Shown: positions 10,018 through 25,294 of the stretch, one piece after another
Numbering within the stretch: position 1 is the stretch's first letter
Layout of the letters: every line of letters begins with the position of its first letter
NCBI GenBank assembly: GCA_030668825.1
Contig: DAOVET010000034.1
Coordinates: forward strand, 1-25,294
DNA from: Candidatus Heimdallarchaeota archaeon
Lineage (GTDB): Archaea > Asgardarchaeota > Heimdallarchaeia > Heimdallarchaeales > Heimdallarchaeaceae
Reading direction: 5' to 3'
Length of the DNA: 25,294 nt
The notes under the pieces: model-generated
The model's database searches: none
What the model saw: only the letters and a program-made list of their open reading frames with translations
Told to the model about the DNA's origin: nothing
Position numbers and translations under genes: made by a program

Positions 10018-10091
10018 TGGCAGACCCAAGGCGATTTGAACGCCTGCCACAGGATCCAGAGTCCCGTATCCTTCCGCTAGACGATGGGTCT
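10018..10091 (-). tRNA. tRNA-Gln(CUG)
   Basis: Reverse complement: AGACCCA-TC-GTCT AGCGGAA GGAT-A-CGGGA CT CTG GA TCCTG-TGGC-AGGCG TTCAAAT CGCCT-TGGGTCT-G-CCA. A1-U72, G73, encoded CCA. Confidence 0.93.
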
Positions 10092-10974: not shown

Positions 10975-11049
10975 TGGTAGCCCTGAGAAGATTCGAACTT
11001 CCGTCTGTAAGCCTAAACCTACAATGCTTGGCCACTACACTACAGGGCT
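10975..11049 (-). tRNA. tRNA-Gln-like gene with an aberrant 6-nt anticodon loop (UUUAGG); identity unresolved
   Basis: Reverse complement: AGCCCTG-TA-GTGT AGTGGCCAA GCAT-T-GTAGG TTTAGG CTTAC-AGAC-GGAAG TTCGAAT CTTCT-CAGGGCT-A-CCA. All four stems pair; archaeal Gln-type body. Confidence 0.8.
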
Positions 11050-11154: not shown

Positions 11155-11230
11155 TGGTAGTCCCTGGGAGATTTGAACTCCCGGCGCCAGATTCAAAGTC
11201 TGGAATGTTTCCAGGCTACACCAAGGGACT
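11155..11230 (-). tRNA. tRNA-Gln(UUG)
   Basis: Reverse complement: AGTCCCT-TG-GTGT AGCCTGGAA ACAT-T-CCAGA CT TTG AA TCTGG-CGCC-GGGAG TTCAAAT CTCCC-AGGGACT-A-CCA. Confidence 0.95.
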
Positions 11231-11301: not shown

Positions 11302-13227
11302 TCATTTATTAGTCCATGAATCTCTTAAGGTTATTATTCTGTTGAAGACTAAGTTTTCAGCTTTTGAATCAACTATATCAACTACGAAATATCCATTTCT
11401 TTCAAATTGGAACCTTGAACCTGGTCCCTTATCCTTTAAGAATGGTTCAACATAGGACTTTATTATTTTTATAGAATCGGGATTAAGGTAATCTGTATAG
11501 TCTTTTCCTTCTTCGGTATCCATTGGATTTTCCTTTGTATATAAACGGTCATATAATCTTACTTCTGCTTCTAGAGCATTGTCAGCAGATAACCAATGAA
11601 TTGTCCCCTGAACCTTTCTACCATCAGGAGATTCTCCTCCTTTAGTTTTTGGATCATGAGTACAATGAATTTCTTTTATCTTCCCAGTTTCTTCATCTTT
11701 GAGCACTTTTTCACACTTAATAAAATAAGCATACTTTAATCTGACTTCTTTTCCTAGTGAAAGCCTATAGTAATCTTCTGGTGGATTTTCCATGAAATCT
11801 TCTTGCTCGATGTATAGATTTTTAGTAAATTTCACGTTTCTTGTTCCCACTTCTTTGTCAGCAGGATGATTTGGAATTTTGAATTCCTCAGTCAAATCAT
11901 TAGGATAATTAGTGATTACAAGCTTGAGAGGATTGAGTACACTCATAACTCTAGGGCATCTTTTGTCCAAATCTTCACGCAAATAGTGTTCAAAGATTGA
12001 CATATCTATCAGTTTTTCTCGCTTAGTAATATTTACTCCTAATGAAAAATTACGTATAGCATCAGGTGTAATTCCTCGTCTTCTCATACCTGCTATTGTT
12101 AACATACGTGGGTCATCCCATCCGTTTACGTAATCTTCTTCTACAAGTCTACGTAACCTTCTTTTACTAAGTACCATATAGGAAAGATTCATCTTCGCAA
12201 ATTCAATTTGCTGTGAGTGGAATATGGGACTTCCATCTTCATTTTCTAACTGATCTATATACCAATCATAAAGTGGTCTATGGACCTCAAATTCCAGAGT
12301 ACATATAGAATGAGTTATCCCCTCAATTGAATCTTCTAAACCATGAGCCCAATCATACATTGGATAAATGCACCATTTATCACCTGTGTTATGATGGCTT
12401 GCATGAAGTATTCTATATACTATGGGATCTCTCATGAGCATATTAGGATGAGTCATATCTATTTTCGCTCTTAGAACTTTTTCTCCATCCTTGAATTCTC
12501 CATTTTTCATTCTCTCAAAGAGGTCTAGATTCTCTTCAATTGATCTATTTTTGTATGGACTATCTTTTCCATGCTCTGTTATTGTTCCCCTCATTTCCCG
12601 TATTTCTTCAACACTGGAATCATCCACATATGCTAACCCTTTCTTGACTAACTGAACTGCGTATTCATATAGCTGGTCAAAGTAATCGGATGCAAATAAC
12701 AACCTATCTTCATAATCAACACCAAGCCAAAGAACATCTTCGATTATTGATTCAACAAATTCTTCTTCTTCTGTGAGAGGATTGGTGTCATCAAATCGAA
12801 GGTTAAATTTTCCTCCATACTCCACTGCATAATTATAGTTCCTATTTATTGAATAAGCATGACCAATATGGAGCCATCCATTAGGTTCTGGAGGGAATCG
12901 AGTATGTACTCGTCCTCCAAATCTACCAGTTTTATTATGGTCTTCAATGATTGCTCTAATGAAATCAGTATCTTCCTGAATTTCTTCTTCCTTCTTTTGA
13001 AGAAGTTCAGGATATTTTTGTTGTGCGAGTTGCTGTATTTCTTCAGGCTTTAATGAATTAATATGGTCAATTTTCTTTTCCAATATCTCTTTGATGCTTT
13101 TAGCATCTTTTTTCAATTCAGGATTAGCTTTCATGATAAGACCCATTACAGGACCTACCGCTGCTTCTCCGTATTCCAAAGCGTTTTCAATAGTGTATTT
13201 TTCGCACAATTTTTCTACTGAAGTCAT
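11302..13227 (-). CDS. glnS: Glutamine--tRNA ligase with an archaeal GluRS-like N-terminal domain
   Basis: DFIRAII...[44 protein letters not shown] (Gln-type Cys, not the GluRS Arg), [25 protein letters not shown] and [11 protein letters not shown]. Confidence 0.93.
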
Positions 13228-15472: not shown

Positions 15473-16612
15473 TCAGATACAGCGATAAACAGCTGTAGGT
15501 CCTGTTTCTTTATATTCCTTCTTTGTTACCCAAAGTTTGTTAAAAGTTTTAAGAGAACTTAATATACTACCACCTATCCAAACAGAATATCTTCTTTCAG
15601 GAGGAGCAACTATCTTTACTTCTGTTGTATCAGGAACAAGTTCAGTTAATTCTCGGTGTAATCTTTCCTTTAATCCAGGAAACATTGTGGTTCCACCAGA
15701 TAAGACGATATTTGAAAACAGATCTCTTCTTAAGTCCACATCGCATCGCTGAACCATTCTATAGATTAGTTCATCAAGGGGTTCTTCTTCTGAACCGATT
15801 ACTCCTGGACTAAAAAGTAGCTCTGGAGCCATAAAGCGTTCTGCGCCTAGTGTTAAGGTTTCTCCGTCCGGCATTGTATAGTCTTTTTCCATACTTGATA
15901 CTCTTTCAGTTAGTCGTAGTTCTTTTTCTGGATTTAAAGCAACATAACAAAGTCTTTCTTTAATATCTAGAACAATTTCTCTTTCTGCGCTTGTTGTTAG
16001 GGAATATCCTCGTTGCTTTAAGAGAGTTCTTAGATAATTAGTAATATCTCTTCCTCCAATATCACATCGATGTATTGCATGAGATATTGCAAAGCCCTCA
16101 TAGACTGGAACAATGTGTATCACACCATCTCCTGCATCAACTACTAACCCTGTAGTTCTTCCAGATGCATAGAGTGAGAGTATTGCTTGCATAGAGATAT
16201 ACATTGCTGGAACATTGAACATCTCAAACATCATCTCAGCCATCTTTTCTTTATTTCTGTTATCGTTCAAAGGAGGTTCAGTTAGCATTATTGGATGCTC
16301 ATTTGGATTAACTCTCAAATCATTATAGAAAGTATAATGCCAGATATTTTCCATTGCTCCCCAATCTTTGACTTGCCCATGTTCAACTGGATAGACAAGT
16401 TTGAGAATACCTCGCATATTCATAGCCTCTTCTCCAATATAGTGTTCCTTTATCCATCCTTCAACATCAGGCATTACAACTGGATGTTTAGGATATCCAA
16501 TGATTGTTGGGAAAACACTTCTTGGTTGATCTTCTCCTGCAAATCCATTCTTCGTAAATCCAGTCCCATTATCTAAAACAAGTGGTTTTGTTTGAAATGC
16601 TTCAACTGTCAT
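15473..16612 (-). CDS. Asgard actin (Lokiactin-like, eukaryote-type)
   Basis: LVLDNGTGFTKNGFAGEDQPRSVFP, YPVEHG..DW, LSLYASGRTTG.VVDAGDG, NIVLSGGTTMFPG and APPERRYSVWIGGSILSSL. Start set at ATG 16612 (379 aa). Confidence 0.97.
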   Translation of the reverse strand: MTVEAFQTKPLVLDNGTGFTKNGFAGEDQPRSVFPTIIGYPKHPVVMPDVEGWIKEHYIGEEAMNMRGILKLVYPVEHGQVKDWGAMENIWHYTFYNDLRVNPNEHPIMLTEPPLNDNRNKEKMAEMMFEMFNVPAMYISMQAILSLYASGRTTGLVVDAGDGVIHIVPVYEGFAISHAIHRCDIGGRDITNYLRTLLKQRGYSLTTSAEREIVLDIKERLCYVALNPEKELRLTERVSSMEKDYTMPDGETLTLGAERFMAPELLFSPGVIGSEEEPLDELIYRMVQRCDVDLRRDLFSNIVLSGGTTMFPGLKERLHRELTELVPDTTEVKIVAPPERRYSVWIGGSILSSLKTFNKLWVTKKEYKETGPTAVYRCI

Positions 16613-17495
16613 CTTTTTTCCCCTTCCTTCTTGCATGGCTTTCTTTGACAGCTCTTTCTTTCTCATCTGTAATGGCTTTTTCCAAATTCTCTAGTCTTCC
16701 TTCAAGTTTTTCAATGCTTGAATCAAGTTTAGAATCTCTTTCTCTTCTAGATATTTCAGCTTGAACATTGTAAAGCATCATTAACTCATGAAAGACCTCA
16801 ATAAACTGATCTGTTCTATAGGGAGCTTTTAGAACTCGCCATCGTTTCACAGTTTCATCAGATCTTTTTTCCATGGTTGAGCGAAGTGCTATTTCATCTT
16901 CACTTGTTAATTCAACACCTTCTTCTTTGAGTTTCTGTATATATTCCTCAATTTTTCGATCTGTTTTGGGAGTTACTTTATCCTTAGTTTTAGCTAACTT
17001 CTTTGCTAGCTTCTCTTCAGGAGTTTTTAATCCAAGTTCAGATTTGCGTGAATCAAATTCTTGATCAACTGAAGGCATAACAGCTGTTTCCAAAGCAGAA
17101 ATTATAGGATTATAGTAACTTCCATAATATCTAGAAACTAGAGCATTTTCTATCCTAACTAAGTCCTCAAGTGGCATTTCAGTTAATTCATTTGGAGTAT
17201 ATCTAGCTGAACGAGCTTTAATCTGCTCTTGAATCTCAAGATATACAATTTGCTCATGGGGGATTTTTTTCTCATCGTATGTTGTCTTATCAATAGTTTT
17301 TTCCATTCTACCAACTCTTTCTTGTAATTCTACTATTCGTTTAACTCGTGATTTTTCCCAACTTTGTCTTTCTTCCTTCTTGCGCTCACGATAGGCCTTT
17401 TTTCGTTCCGCGTCAGTAGCATATTTTTTGGGTCGTCCTGGTCTTTTTTTTTCTTCGTCATTCATTTCAATCACTTTATTTTCGTCCCGAGACAA
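16602..17495 (-). CDS. AT-hook/basic-helix coiled-coil protein, putative DNA-binding
   Basis: KKRPGRPKKYATDAERKKAYRERKK followed by coiled-coil segments at both ends. Its end overlaps the actin start by 11 nt. Alternative ATG at 17465. Confidence 0.75.
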   Translation of the reverse strand: MSRDENKVIEMNDEEKKRPGRPKKYATDAERKKAYRERKKEERQSWEKSRVKRIVELQERVGRMEKTIDKTTYDEKKIPHEQIVYLEIQEQIKARSARYTPNELTEMPLEDLVRIENALVSRYYGSYYNPIISALETAVMPSVDQEFDSRKSELGLKTPEEKLAKKLAKTKDKVTPKTDRKIEEYIQKLKEEGVELTSEDEIALRSTMEKRSDETVKRWRVLKAPYRTDQFIEVFHELMMLYNVQAEISRRERDSKLDSSIEKLEGRLENLEKAITDEKERAVKESHARRKGKKDDS

Positions 17496-18958: not shown

Positions 18959-19594
18959 ATGAATTTTGCAGATAATTGTAAGGAAGCAATCCTTAATGGA
19001 GATATAGGATTAACAGAAAAACTTGCAAACAAAGCAATATCAGAAAATATTGATATCAATCTTGCAATAGACGCTTTTTCTTTAGCAATACGTGAAGCAG
19101 GCGATTTGTTTGAAGAAGGGGAATTCTTCTTACCAGAATTAATGCGAAGCGCTGAAGCCATGAAAGCAGCAATGACTATCTTTGAACCTATTCTCAAGGA
19201 AGGAAAGGATGATAGAATACTTGGTAAGGTAGTTATTGGGACAATTGAAGGAGATATTCATGATATAGGAAAAACACTTGTTGCAGCATTGCTTTCTGCT
19301 GAAGGATTCGAAGTTCATGATCTTGGAGCTGATGTTCCAATAAGCGCATTCATCGATAAAGCTGTAGAAGTTGATGCGCAAATTATCTGTATCTCGGCAT
19401 TATTAACAACTACCATGGTTGGTCAAAAGAAATTAATTAATCAGCTGAAGGAAAAGAAACTCCGAGATAAGTTTAAAATTCTTATTGGAGGAGCTCCCAT
19501 ATCCAAAAAATGGGTTAAGGAAATTGGAGCAGATGGATCTGCTGAAAATGCTGTCAGTTCTGTTAAATTAGCAAGAGAAGTATTAGGTATTTAG
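18959..19594 (+). CDS. Corrinoid protein (MttC/MtbC-like; cap + B12-binding domain)
   Basis: FEEGEFFLPELM cap, GTIEGDIHDIGK (DxHxxG), SALLTTTM and IGGAP. Confidence 0.93.
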   Translation: MNFADNCKEAILNGDIGLTEKLANKAISENIDINLAIDAFSLAIREAGDLFEEGEFFLPELMRSAEAMKAAMTIFEPILKEGKDDRILGKVVIGTIEGDIHDIGKTLVAALLSAEGFEVHDLGADVPISAFIDKAVEVDAQIICISALLTTTMVGQKKLINQLKEKKLRDKFKILIGGAPISKKWVKEIGADGSAENAVSSVKLAREVLGI

Positions 19595-19605
19595 GAGGTT
19601 TTCCT

Positions 19606-20493
19606 CTGAATCATAAAAAATCCATTCTGGAATTAATTAAAGAACGAGTAGTCATTTTAGATGGTGCAATGGGTTCCATGCTTATTGATCAAGGTCTAGA
19701 ACCTGGAACACCACCTGAAAAATGGAATGCTTCTCATCCAGAAAAAATTCAGAAAATCCATTTGGATTATTTCAATGCTGGTTCTGATGCGGTTCTTACA
19801 AATACTTTTGGTGGTTCTAGAATGAAGTTAACCGCACACAAACAAGGTCATAGTACTGAGAAATATAATCAAAAAGCAGTAAAACTTGCAAGAGAAATCT
19901 GTCCTGAAAACCGTTTCATTGCAGGGGACATTGGTCCTTCTGGAGCATTTCTCCCGCCAGTAGGTACTGTAAGTGTTAGCGATTTTGAAGAGAATTTCTT
20001 AGAACAAGCTGGGTACTTAGCAGACGCTGATATAGATTTTTTCTTTATTGAAACTATGTTTGATTTGAAAGAAGCTGAAACAGCTGTTAAAGCTGCAAGA
20101 AGTGTCTCTAAAATACCCGTTTTTGCATCTATCACATTTCAAAAAACCAAAAGAGGATATTTTACAATAATGGGAGATACAGTGTTGAATTGTGTAAAAA
20201 CACTAGAGAAAGCTGGAGCCAATGTCATTGGTGCAAATTGTACAATAGGTAGTGATGAGATGATTGATCTCATTCCTTTGATTTCTCAAGAAACAAATCT
20301 CCCTATTTTAGCAAAACCAAATGCTGGAAAACCCCAGTTGGAGAATGGTAAAACAGTTTATCTAACAGAACCTAAACCTTTTGCAAAAGATATTGAGCAG
20401 ATTATAAAGAATGGAGCAAGAGTAGTTGGTGGATGTTGTGGTTCAAACCCAGAGTTCATCAAAGAAATTGCTAAGCAAGTTAAAGGTGAATAA
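19606..20493 (+). CDS. Homocysteine S-methyltransferase domain protein (MetH N-terminal module), probable CTG start
   Basis: The conserved VVILDGAMG lies upstream of the ORF-track ATG. TNTFG, AGDIGP, ETM, GANC, PNAG.P and GGCCG (Zn ligands). GGAGG SD 7 nt before CTG 19606. Confidence 0.9.
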   Translation: MNHKKSILELIKERVVILDGAMGSMLIDQGLEPGTPPEKWNASHPEKIQKIHLDYFNAGSDAVLTNTFGGSRMKLTAHKQGHSTEKYNQKAVKLAREICPENRFIAGDIGPSGAFLPPVGTVSVSDFEENFLEQAGYLADADIDFFFIETMFDLKEAETAVKAARSVSKIPVFASITFQKTKRGYFTIMGDTVLNCVKTLEKAGANVIGANCTIGSDEMIDLIPLISQETNLPILAKPNAGKPQLENGKTVYLTEPKPFAKDIEQIIKNGARVVGGCCGSNPEFIKEIAKQVKGE

Positions 20494-20494
20494 A

Positions 20495-21148
20495 TTGAGA
20501 GTTCTGGAAGATTTTCAAATTAAATTGGATGACAATGAAATTCTTCGTTTATTACAGAATAAACAATCTGATAAAGAAATGAAGAAACCTTCAGAAAACG
20601 TAATAAAAGAGATTGAGGAAATGAAGGAACTTGCTCTACCCTTAATCAAACCGAGAGGGATTTACAAGATTTATGAGAGTAAAGATTTTAGACCAAAATT
20701 TCTGTTTAAGAAGTCTGATATCTCTGTATTCGCAATTTGCACAATTGGTAAAGATTTGGAAAACTTAAGTAGAGATTATCTCAAGAGAGGAGAATTGGCT
20801 AAAGGAGTCATACTGGATGCAATAGCTTCTCATGCAGCTGAACAGACAGCTGAAGAGGTAAATCAGATCATTCTAAATGAGTTAAGTGACACAATTCAAG
20901 AAAAGGAAGTCAGTTGTCGATTTAGTCCTGGCTACTGTCAGTGGGATTTAGATAAGGGTCAAAAACAGATTTTCAGTCTTCTGGATAGCGAAAAAATAGG
21001 TGTTTCTCTTACTACTTCAATGATGATGAATCCAGTAAAATCTGTCTCATTTGCAATTAATATAGGAGTAGAGGTTGACAAAGAATTAGGAATAAGGGGT
21101 TGTGAGAATTGCGATATGATTAATTGTGCGTATCGCAGAACAAAATAA
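20495..21148 (+). CDS. Stand-alone MetH activation-domain-like protein
   Basis: AICTIG..LE, LDAIASHAAE, RFSPGY..W, IGVSLT.SMMMNPVKSVS and C-terminal CENC...C. TTG 20495 follows an AGGTGA SD. Confidence 0.85.
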   Translation: MRVLEDFQIKLDDNEILRLLQNKQSDKEMKKPSENVIKEIEEMKELALPLIKPRGIYKIYESKDFRPKFLFKKSDISVFAICTIGKDLENLSRDYLKRGELAKGVILDAIASHAAEQTAEEVNQIILNELSDTIQEKEVSCRFSPGYCQWDLDKGQKQIFSLLDSEKIGVSLTTSMMMNPVKSVSFAINIGVEVDKELGIRGCENCDMINCAYRRTK

Positions 21149-23904: not shown

Positions 23905-24346
23905 TTTTTTTTCACCTAATTGTTTTCTAGTATTGTAGCATTGACTTAGTAAGAATCTTCCTTGAAGTTTCGCCGTTTTAAACGTTCTAAGTAAATAGAG
24001 TAGTTTTCAATATTTAATACCACAAACGAAGTCAATTTTCGTTAATGATACCACTATTCTTCATAATCGAGCATTACAGTTAGTCAATCATATAACTATT
24101 CATATCTTTAAATAGTTATTCTTTTATTATCCCATATATTAATAAGTTCTTATAATAATTATTAAGTGATAATGTGATGAATCCATAATTAATTAAAGTA
24201 AAGCATAATTAATATGTTGTTTTCAATAGTAATTACTATAAAGGAAAGCTTGAATGATGTTATTTTTCTTTGATTAATCGGAAATAATCTTTTAAACACA
24301 GCAATTTATTTCATACATAACTGATTAATTGTTTGAGTTAATTGTA

Positions 24347-25294
24347 ATGAGACCTACTATCAATATTCTTGAAGAAGAACTAAAGGAAAAAGTTGTAATA
24401 GAAGCAATGGAAATACTTGAAGAAATCGGTTTTTTTGTCGAAAATGATGAAGCAATGCAAATCCTACAAAAAGAAGGTTTAAACGTTGACAAAATTAACA
24501 GACGAGTAAAAATCCCGCCAGATCTCATCAAGAAATCATTAAAAACAGCACCCTCATCAATTCCGATCTATGACAGAGACGGTAATTTAGTGACTAAATT
24601 AGAAGGAGACAATATTTGTTTTGATCCTGGTTCAGCTGCACTTAATGTTTTAGATCCAGAAACTAATGAAATTCGATCTGCAGTTTCAAAAGATTTCGTT
24701 GATTTCACTAAGGTTGTTGATCAACTTGAACACATACATGCTCAAAGTACAGCTATAATTTGTTCGGATGTACCAGAAGAAATTGGTGACAGATATAGAC
24801 TGTTAATTTCATTGATTTACTCAAAAAAACCAGTTGTAACCGGAACATTTGCAAAAGAATCTTTTGGAGTAATGAAAGATATGTTAGTAGCTGTAAGAGG
24901 AAGCGAAGAAGAACTAAGAAGAAAACCTCTTGCAATATTTGATGCTTGCCCCTCACCACCTTTAAAATGGAGTGACTTGACTTGTCAAAGTATAATTGAT
25001 TGTGCGAAATATGGTATTCCTTCTGAATTTGTCTCTATGCCAATGACAGGTGCCAATGCACCAATTACTATACTCGGAGCTGTTGTTCAACATGCAGCAG
25101 AAACATTAGCTGGATTAGTTATAACTCAACTTGTATCACCAGGAGCTCCTGTAATATGGGGCGGATCACCTGCAGTTTTCGATCTACGAAAGGCTACCAC
25201 ACCCATGGGTTCTATTGATACCATGATTCTTGATCTCGGTTATGTTGAAATTGGTAAATATCTCAATCTACCTACTCATGCTTATCTAGGCATG
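24347..25294 (+). CDS. Trimethylamine methyltransferase (MttB) superfamily protein, 3'-truncated by the window
   Basis: Absent from the ORF track. Open for 316 codons: MRPTINIL...EILEEIG...SPPLKW...SMPMTGANAPITILGAVVQHAAETLAGLVITQLVSPGAPVIWGG...LNLPTHAYLGM. Confidence 0.92.
   Translation, partial: MRPTINILEEELKEKVVIEAMEILEEIGFFVENDEAMQILQKEGLNVDKINRRVKIPPDLIKKSLKTAPSSIPIYDRDGNLVTKLEGDNICFDPGSAALNVLDPETNEIRSAVSKDFVDFTKVVDQLEHIHAQSTAIICSDVPEEIGDRYRLLISLIYSKKPVVTGTFAKESFGVMKDMLVAVRGSEEELRRKPLAIFDACPSPPLKWSDLTCQSIIDCAKYGIPSEFVSMPMTGANAPITILGAVVQHAAETLAGLVITQLVSPGAPVIWGGSPAVFDLRKATTPMGSIDTMILDLGYVEIGKYLNLPTHAYLGM

Follow-up and report, generated by a model that had tools for sequence, protein, structure and literature searches.

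A bacterial-type glutaminyl-tRNA synthetase with an archaeal GluRS-type N-terminal domain in Heimdall archaea

Glutaminyl-tRNA synthetases (GlnRS) with a helper domain attached, one that comes from the indirect route to Gln-tRNA, are already known. Deniziak 2007 (PMC1865053) describes the YqeY domain of Deinococcus GlnRS as a cis-acting enhancer of affinity for tRNA-Gln, and Grant 2011 (PMC3333875) reports that the N-terminal domain of yeast Gln4 is GatB-like and that a linker mutant has a tenfold higher Km for tRNA. For archaea, the passages of a 2022 review that deal with them (PMC9499178) hold that none has GlnRS, the reason given being that archaeal tRNA-Gln is unreadable by a foreign GlnRS, and in the portion of a 2024 preprint concerned with the matter (10.1101/2024.07.04.601786) one sentence is given to GlnRS genes adjoining cox genes in some Heimdallarchaeia. 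Here, we describe an archaeal GlnRS with an N-terminal domain of the kind carried by archaeal glutamyl-tRNA synthetase (GluRS). In the literature on archaeal, Asgard and Heimdall GlnRS we found no description of such a domain, with the reservation that the supplements of the 2024 preprint may list these genes. The gene lies at 11302..13227 on the minus strand of a stretch of 25,294 nucleotides (the window) from a Candidatus Heimdallarchaeota archaeon (GenBank assembly GCA_030668825.1, contig DAOVET010000034.1). We regard it as reasonably probable that the best explanation of the protein is a bacterial GlnRS joined to an archaeal GluRS N-domain, the latter acting in cis as a tRNA-affinity helper.

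According to the list of open reading frames (ORFs), the translation and the match to TIGR00440, the gene is a single unbroken ORF of 641 codons with a TGA stop, and its 641-residue product has three parts: an N-terminal helical domain that shares homology with the "YQEY" domain at the N terminus of archaeal GluRS (residues 1–80; 12988..13227, minus strand), a charged helical linker (residues 81–104; 12916..12987, minus strand), which is a helix in the AlphaFold2 (AF2) model and leads on to where the alignment with bacterial-type GlnRS begins, and a GlnRS body (residues 105–641; 11305..12915, minus strand) made up of a catalytic Rossmann domain and two beta-barrel anticodon-binding domains. 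The glnS equivalog model TIGR00440 scores the protein at 687.7 bits against a cut-off of 425.8, with residues 107–639 covering positions 1–523 of the 524 in the model, while on the archaeal GluRS model TIGR00463 it stays under the cut-off (391.4 vs 401.75); Pfam places PF00749 at 107–415, PF03950 at 424–525 and PF20974 at 542–617. Residues 85–639 align end to end with the GlnRS of Pseudomonas aeruginosa (647 bits, E 3e-193) and of Escherichia coli (637 bits, E 4e-190), and the alignments to GlnRS in the PDB start at residues 85–88. Scores are lower for the GlnRS of Deinococcus (504 bits), human (413) and yeast (388) and for archaeal GluRS 3AII (230). The first-pass annotation, made from the sequence by eye, had proposed that the protein reads like a bacterial GlnRS from residue 88 onward, and the alignments bear this out; the strings that it quoted are all found in the protein (a 34-letter string at residues 10–43, DFIRAII from 88 and HSICTLEF at 306–313).

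By alignment, the active-site residues are those of a GlnRS. The HIGH motif occupies residues 120–123 (H120-I-G-H123), and the KMSKS-like motif takes the form LSK (353–355), aligned to MSK in E. coli. The residues of the Gln pocket, R110, Y291, H295, S307, C309 and Q340, are present and invariant in GlnRS alignment A1; they align to E. coli Arg30, Tyr211, His215, Ser227, Cys229 and Gln255, respectively. The sections of Nureki et al. on specificity (PMC2978374) set out the roles of these residues and report Cys in all GlnRS where GluRS has Arg; the GluRS encoded in the same genome does have Arg at the site equivalent to Cys309 (HILRSIEF). The unpairing loop and the G36 loop, named as GlnRS-specific in those sections, are ungapped in the alignment to the E. 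coli and P. aeruginosa enzymes. The ratio of nonsynonymous to synonymous substitution rates (dN/dS) in the core is 0.05–0.09 in the five of eight pairs with unsaturated dS. At the site aligned to what we take to be Asp235 in E. coli numbering, all 19 Heimdall proteins with the N-domain (hereafter N-type) have Val or Ile, and of 77 non-Heimdall frames (76 bacterial and 1 from Thermoplasmata), 28 have Asp there, 25 Asn and 18 Val or Ile. On the favoured explanation, the window gene encodes a working GlnRS of bacterial descent, and the enzyme would be expected to be specific for Gln in vitro.

The similarity of residues ~1–80 to the N-terminal extension of archaeal GluRS, which had initially been put forward, holds in both pairwise and profile comparisons. 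BLASTP of residues 1–95 against the N terminus of the genome's own GluRS gives 26 identities in 84 positions (31%, E 8e-11), and the domain aligns over its full length with the N termini of 45 Asgard GluRS. Among 177,635 distinct PDB sequences, a profile of 37 N-domains has a sole match, GluRS of Methanothermobacter thermautotrophicus (3AII residues 3–86, E 2.5e-24), the second-best row standing at E 0.18; the structural account in PMC2978374 labels the N-terminal domain of this GluRS the "YQEY" domain. Searched against 1.84 billion proteins, the profile gives 1026 representative matches, and in the best 150 of the 1026, the domain is N-terminal and mostly found in GluRS-sized proteins or in proteins of 69–300 amino acids, the short ones being taken to be cut gene calls. 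Four matches of odd length were checked by Pfam, and all four carry the domain directly before the E/Q catalytic domain. A word-index search with residues 1–95 returned no GluRS, its matches being limited to 18 close GlnRS relatives; as that method is insensitive, profiles were used instead. Pfam gives no match beyond chance level in residues 1–100, and PF02637 (the GatB/YqeY tail) is unmatched there. In the AF2 model, the domain is predicted with confidence (predicted local distance difference test, pLDDT, of 89) to form helices at 3–19, 24–34, 36–57 and 61–71, and the linker is predicted less confidently (pLDDT 68–70) to form one at 74–98. By homology, residues 1–80 are an N-domain of the archaeal GluRS type.

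The fusion of the two parts is real and under selection. The first-pass annotation had asked that the assembly be checked near position 12970, and there Logan contigs of four runs, belonging to four studies, read straight across the junction, free of joints and indels, and span 12340–13063 or more; some of these runs may be the source sample. Beyond the window, a GlnRS matching with at least 98% query coverage is found in 52 other 90%-identity clusters, 62–92% identical to the window protein, and the closest relatives are named as metagenome-assembled genomes (MAGs) of Heimdallarchaeota or Heimdallarchaeaceae. The N-domain is present in 18 of 30 fetched Heimdall GlnRS loci, the window counted, and its dN/dS is 0.09–0.23 (again for the five of eight pairs with unsaturated dS). 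A hidden Markov model (HMM) of the N-domain matches 19/19 N-type frames and none of 12 Heimdall frames lacking the domain (N-less), 77 bacterial or Thermoplasmata frames and 21 viral frames; because some of the N-type frames had gone into the model itself, only the negatives are informative. One full-length N-type cluster, P0027 (68% identity), is on a contig of ~220 kb that NCBI labels "Candidatus Bathyarchaeia archaeon"; this may point to an additional host lineage or to a bin with the wrong label.

A scan of 400 Asgard genomes, with families labelled f1 (that of the window), f2, f4, f5, f6 and f7, found GlnRS in 44 (41 of them over the curated cut-off), all in the class of the window. By family, the gene is present in 20/30 genomes of f1, 10/12 of f7, 12/22 of f5 and 1/2 of f6, and it is absent from the 16 genomes searched in three further families of the order, as well as from all of the ~317 remaining Asgard genomes. 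Families f1 and f7 have the N-type form, and f5 has the N-less form (loci L005–L007, L010–L013, L015, L016, L025, L029 and L032). The general statement from which the first-pass annotation started, that archaea lack GlnRS and use GluRS with GatDE, needs to be divided accordingly: GluRS, GatD and GatE are indeed encoded in this genome, but GlnRS over the cut-off occurs in 41 of 400 Asgard genomes and also in one Thermoplasmata MAG. In the latter, a 113-kb contig labelled Thermoplasmata (L091) carries a GlnRS lacking the N-domain (55% identity) and, directly upstream of it, two tRNA-Gln(CUG) copies, one with a degenerate 3' half (46.9 vs 85.2 bits).

The body nests among bacterial GlnRS. The core of the window protein is 54–64% identical to the 77 non-Heimdall frames and 57–60% to the f5 proteins, and the body is ~37–41% identical to eukaryote-like GlnRS of giant viruses; the f5 protein of L005 is 69–70% identical to its best bacterial matches vs 60% to the window GlnRS. 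In a first tree, without viral proxies and rooted on Asgard GluRS, the N-type proteins formed a clade with support of 100 whose sister was Ignavibacteriota, and the f5 proteins formed another (100) elsewhere among bacteria; the backbone was weak, with a polytomy at the root within GlnRS. In a second tree, giant-virus GlnRS, some with eukaryote-style N-terminal extensions, were added as proxies for eukaryotes; they fell outside a clade of 50 rows uniting bacteria and Heimdall (support 93), the N-type clade (100) was again sister to Ignavibacteriota (90) within nested clades supported at 95, 92, 87 and 93, and the f5 clade was placed inside a different clade (97). The gene is best read as a bacterial import fused to an archaeal domain, because its body nests among bacterial GlnRS and far from the giant-virus forms, and the rooted tree to this extent agrees with the chimera in an Asgard archaeon that had been suggested initially. 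The relevance to the origin of GlnRS at the Asgard–eukaryote boundary that had been suggested with it is not supported, given the identities to bacterial and giant-virus forms and the position of the latter outside the clade. To judge from these sequence comparisons, the window gene is not a relic of the origin of eukaryotic GlnRS.

An approximately unbiased (AU) test, run under LG+G4, did not reject a single clade for all Heimdall GlnRS (p-AU 0.269, difference in log likelihood 43). Counting against a single transfer, the N-type and f5 groups are each nearer to different bacteria than to one another, and the free trees split them; on balance, the pattern favours two separate transfers, presumably from bacteria into Heimdall archaea. 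Separate phylogenies of the two parts, called for at the outset, were informative for the body and only partly so for the N-domain: with 84 columns, the N-domains of GlnRS form one group (86) among those of Asgard GluRS, and the tree does not resolve the donor GluRS lineage. In six loci of Ignavibacteriota and relatives, which are sister to the N-type clade, glnS has a tRNA-Leu(CAA) gene as its neighbour (L039, L042, L045, L049, L087 and L096), ~100–200 nt downstream in five of them and upstream on the other strand in L042.

The substrate tRNAs are encoded next to the enzyme. ARAGORN finds 30 tRNA genes in the genome, of which only two are for tRNA-Gln, and both are in the window. The tRNA-Gln(UUG) gene (11155..11230, minus strand; 84.5 bits on the tRNA-Gln model) follows the GlnRS stop at a distance of 72 nt on the same strand, and that for tRNA-Gln(CUG) (10018..10091, minus strand; 81 bits) is ~1.2 kb further downstream; both have A1-U72 and an encoded CCA, with discriminator A73 in the former and G73 in the latter. 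Most f1 genomes, and two or more f7 genomes, have a tRNA-Gln gene within ~300 nt downstream of GlnRS, and in 11 of 12 f5 genomes two tRNA-Gln genes are convergent to it; among 60 bacterial loci, only 4 have tRNA-Gln within 1.5 kb of glnS. In relatives of the window's genome, the tRNA-Gln(UUG) gene beside GlnRS spans 105–110 nt (G017:C30:6394-6501, G025:C50:6207-6314, G033:C173:20342-20449 and G086:C64:15124-15233, among others), and in the three copies where alignment showed it (G072, G081 and G086), the extra 30–32 nt are in the anticodon loop, that is, an intron; ARAGORN without intron search missed these intron-bearing genes.

The bacterial identity elements named in the relevant part of PMC9499178 are U1-A72 and G73. 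All Heimdall tRNA-Gln sampled have A1-U72. At the discriminator, A73 is found in 17 of 18 tRNA-Gln of f1, the exception being the CUG gene of the window, and in 9/9 of f7, while all 23 tRNA-Gln of the 12 GlnRS-bearing f5 genomes have G73. GlnRS with the N-domain thus pairs with tRNAs that have the archaeal-style A73, and GlnRS lacking it with tRNAs bearing G73, a correspondence that covers only two or three independent lineages. We also considered G73 as a pure adaptation to GlnRS and rejected it, since among the tRNA-Gln sampled from f4, a family free of GlnRS, five of ten have G73 and five A73.

Between the two tRNA-Gln genes is a third, tRNA-Gln-like gene (10975..11049, minus strand), reported by ARAGORN as "tRNA-???" and scoring 64.2 bits on the tRNA-Gln model, with A1-U72, A73, an encoded CCA and a 6-nt anticodon loop, UUUAGG. 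Relatives of the gene are found at L021:1168-1242, L027:1132-1206, L322:2239-2313, L319:21-95 and L320:21-95; within the genus, the loop is UUUAGG in four genomes, UUUUGG in one and UUUCGG in one, and the stems stay paired through base changes. Reading the gene as a plain ochre suppressor is unlikely, because TAA is the commonest stop in the genome, ending 758 of 1447 long frames.

Here the indirect route persists beside the direct one, because archaeal GluRS, GatE and GatD are all encoded in the genome, over their cut-offs and without stops; GlnRS and GatDE would presumably divide the labour. The GluRS (G000:C135:22902-24596, L001) is only narrowly over the cut-off of TIGR00463 (422.7 vs 401.75 bits), and most other Asgard GluRS reach 500–610 bits; those of the GlnRS-free family f4 score lower still, at only 349–386, so the divergence of GluRS does not simply track the presence of GlnRS. 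Across the class, GatE falls into two score classes on TIGR00134, "canonical" (530–650 bits) and "divergent" (335–440 bits). The copy of the window's genome (G000:C20:67097-69007, 393.7 bits) and all other full-length f1 matches are in the divergent class, and both classes are present in 8 of 12 f7 genomes and one f2 genome. The tail of the genome's own GatE scores 25.2 bits on PF02637, under the cut-off of 27.

The architecture is shown, as are the homology of both parts, the retention of the fusion among relatives, the presence of the Gln-pocket residues and the nesting of the body among bacteria; on this footing, the history and working of the enzyme can be sketched as follows. A bacterial GlnRS gene would have been transferred into a Heimdall archaeon, and its 5' end would then have been joined to a copy of the ~80-residue helical N-terminal domain carried by all archaeal GluRS. 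The body would provide Gln activation and the usual contacts to the acceptor stem and anticodon, and the N-domain, suspended on its charged helical linker, would most likely be an extra tRNA-binding module that acts in cis and raises the affinity for archaeal-type tRNA-Gln with A1-U72 and mostly A73. By analogy with the Deinococcus and yeast enzymes, it most likely helps a foreign GlnRS to act on archaeal tRNA-Gln by contributing binding energy for the tRNA. The enzyme would operate alongside the retained GluRS and GatDE.

Several points weigh against this explanation. The case for tRNA binding by the N-domain is one of analogy throughout, and the profile and structural links of the domain to YqeY and GatB tails are weak, at the level of noise. 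A Foldseek search of the N-domain model against the PDB gave no match at E<=0.001, and the hhalign match to Heimdall GatE tails is weak (E 0.0012, probability 19.6%, 35 columns). In VIA comparisons, the model matched residues 97–148 of YqeY (1NG6) at Z 5.0, with a root-mean-square deviation of 1.9 over 47 residues, which is in the noise band, human GlnRS residues 119–182 at Z 5.4 and yeast Gln4 residues 119–184 at Z 4.6, the top rows (Z ~6) being unrelated helical proteins. The YqeY, human and yeast matches all fall on the "tail" subdomain, which in the structural comparison of Grant et al. (PMC3333875) is superposed on the GatB tail; their agreement is coherent but not conclusive. The f5 family runs an N-less GlnRS on A1-U72 tRNAs, so in this class a bacterial-type GlnRS does not strictly require the N-domain, and with GluRS, GatD and GatE intact, GlnRS may be redundant. 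On the side of descent, backbone support in the GlnRS trees is moderate, comes from SH-aLRT (the Shimodaira–Hasegawa-like approximate likelihood ratio test) only and has giant-virus proxies standing for eukaryotes, and the N-domain tree gave no resolved donor GluRS lineage. Nor is there any excess similarity pointing to a graft, since the mean identity of the N-domain to GluRS, 28.7%, equals the 28.8% expected from the divergence of the core; pairs of GluRS at 20–30% core identity have 28.6% identity in the N-domain, and the comparison, being saturated, cannot separate a graft from co-inheritance.

The equal divergence of N-domain and core is what co-divergence predicts, and it is an argument for ancestral retention: GlnRS would have arisen by duplication of an archaeal GluRS in the stem of Heimdall archaea and eukaryotes, keeping the N-domain that bacterial GlnRS later lost, and the gene would be a relic rather than a chimera. 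The polytomy at the root of GlnRS in the tree lacking viral proxies agrees with this, as do the weak structural matches to the N-terminal tail-like subdomain that eukaryotic GlnRS also have. We nevertheless think such a history very improbable. The identity measure is saturated, and with the proxies included, the N-type clade sits several supported nodes deep in the bacterial radiation (90, 95, 92, 87 and 93); GlnRS is absent in all 16 genomes of the three sister families and in all other Asgard families searched, and the N-domain HMM finds no match in the eukaryote-like forms of viruses, which are extended at the N terminus. A chimera is the better reading, because the body nests within bacteria. 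An artefact would be another reading, in which the junction was misassembled or a gene from a bacterial contaminant was wrongly joined to an ORF upstream, and the source is indeed a MAG of 138 contigs with 4.67% contamination; this is already contradicted by the Logan contigs that cross the junction and by the retention of the fusion in the other clusters and loci, as well as by the even GC content, the flanking Asgard marker genes and the adjacent archaeal-type tRNAs, and we give it next to no credence.

Two further alternatives accept the fusion and differ over what the protein does. The N-domain could be mainly a protein–protein or regulatory handle, for example docking GlnRS to partners of GluRS such as GatDE or another translation factor. 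The same domain is found on the GluRS that feeds GatDE, the two pathways coexist, and a weak resemblance to tRNA-binding tails, together with the disorder of the domain in the 3AII crystal, would suit such a role; none of our results indicates a partner, however, and the only tested precedents for YqeY- or GatB-like domains appended to GlnRS are tRNA related, so we consider the handle unlikely. Alternatively, the enzyme could be noncanonical, charging Glu or the nearby tRNA-like RNA, or could be a redundant and drifting paralogue, with GluRS and GatDE making Gln-tRNA. The intact indirect pathway and the tRNA-Gln-like gene with its 6-nt anticodon loop between the two tRNA-Gln genes give this some colour, but the score over the equivalog cut-off, the retention of all Gln-pocket residues and of the HIGH and KMSKS-like motifs and the low dN/dS of the core (0.05–0.09 in the five estimable pairs of eight) make it very improbable.

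The bacterial GlnRS with an archaeal helper domain could also be one half of a larger pattern, which we put forward tentatively and as a single, doubtful claim. Heimdall archaea may have crossed the long-proposed "orthogonality barrier" to GlnRS in Archaea twice and by different ways. In f1 and f7, an imported GlnRS would have taken up the tRNA-binding N-domain of the host GluRS, making the unchanged A73 tRNA-Gln usable; the second way would be an N-less bacterial GlnRS with tRNA-Gln genes that all bear the bacterial-style G73. As parts of the same claim, GlnRS may be the main route in f1, where GluRS and GatE score unusually low on their family models, and the tRNA-Gln-like RNA with the 6-nt anticodon loop may have arisen beside the GlnRS gene in that family.

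The surroundings of the gene are those of an Asgard genome. GC content is 30–37% and even throughout the window, and in the annotation of the window's proteins, the GlnRS gene is surrounded by the Asgard markers actin, Alba, NucS, RIO kinase and archaeal prepilin peptidase. The actin homologue (Pfam Actin, 432 bits) is within the window, as is a corrinoid methyltransferase set consisting of a B12-binding protein, an S-methyltransferase, a methionine-synthase activation domain and an MttB-family methyltransferase, the gene for the last being truncated by the window end. The coordinates given for actin and this set are 15473-16666 (minus strand), 18959-21148 (plus strand) and 24329-25294 (plus strand).

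Overall, the gene family is a natural counter-example to the rule of no GlnRS in archaea, with a visible candidate adaptation. On this evidence, it has no bearing on how eukaryotes acquired GlnRS. After Deinococcus and eukaryotes, GlnRS would here have gained a GatB/YqeY-like helper domain independently for a third time, and the compact pair of tRNA and synthetase is of interest to orthogonal translation systems.

Of the described enzymes, the eukaryotic GlnRS (yeast Gln4, 3TL4; human, 4YE6; PMC3333875) likewise have a helical appended domain at the N terminus, with weak structural matches in its tail subdomain. Theirs comprises two subdomains and ~190 residues, whereas the domain in the window has no sequence match to the viral eukaryote-like forms, and the body attached to it is of bacterial rather than eukaryotic type (413 bits to the human enzyme vs 637–647 to the bacterial ones). 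The archaeal nondiscriminating GluRS of M. thermautotrophicus (3AII; PMC2978374; TIGR00463) shares the N-domain and the order of a Rossmann domain followed by two beta-barrels; the window body differs from it in being ~29% identical to Asgard GluRS cores, in having Cys309 instead of Arg and in keeping the GlnRS-specific loops. With bacterial GlnRS (E. coli, 1O0B and 1GTR; P. aeruginosa, 5BNZ), the catalytic and tRNA-contact regions are held in common, but none of the 77 sampled non-Heimdall frames has the N-domain, and the substrate tRNAs have A1-U72 and mostly A73 rather than U1-A72 and G73. Also similar in design is the GlnRS of Deinococcus radiodurans (2HZ7; PMC1865053; NF011291), which likewise has a bacterial-type body to which a helical domain with ties to the indirect Gln pathway is attached. 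NF011291, a Deinococcus-type model, gives the window protein 826 bits (cut-off 681), but the match covers only positions 6–558 of 769 and the protein ends at the GlnRS C terminus, so the C-terminal YqeY part is absent. Relatives bear the NCBI name "glutamine--tRNA ligase/YqeY domain fusion protein" because of their matches to this model, and the name is correct merely by accident. The YqeY domain of Deinococcus is C-terminal and 215 residues long, whereas the appended domain of the window protein is N-terminal, of ~80 residues and of the archaeal GluRS type, in an archaeal host and from an independent fusion event.

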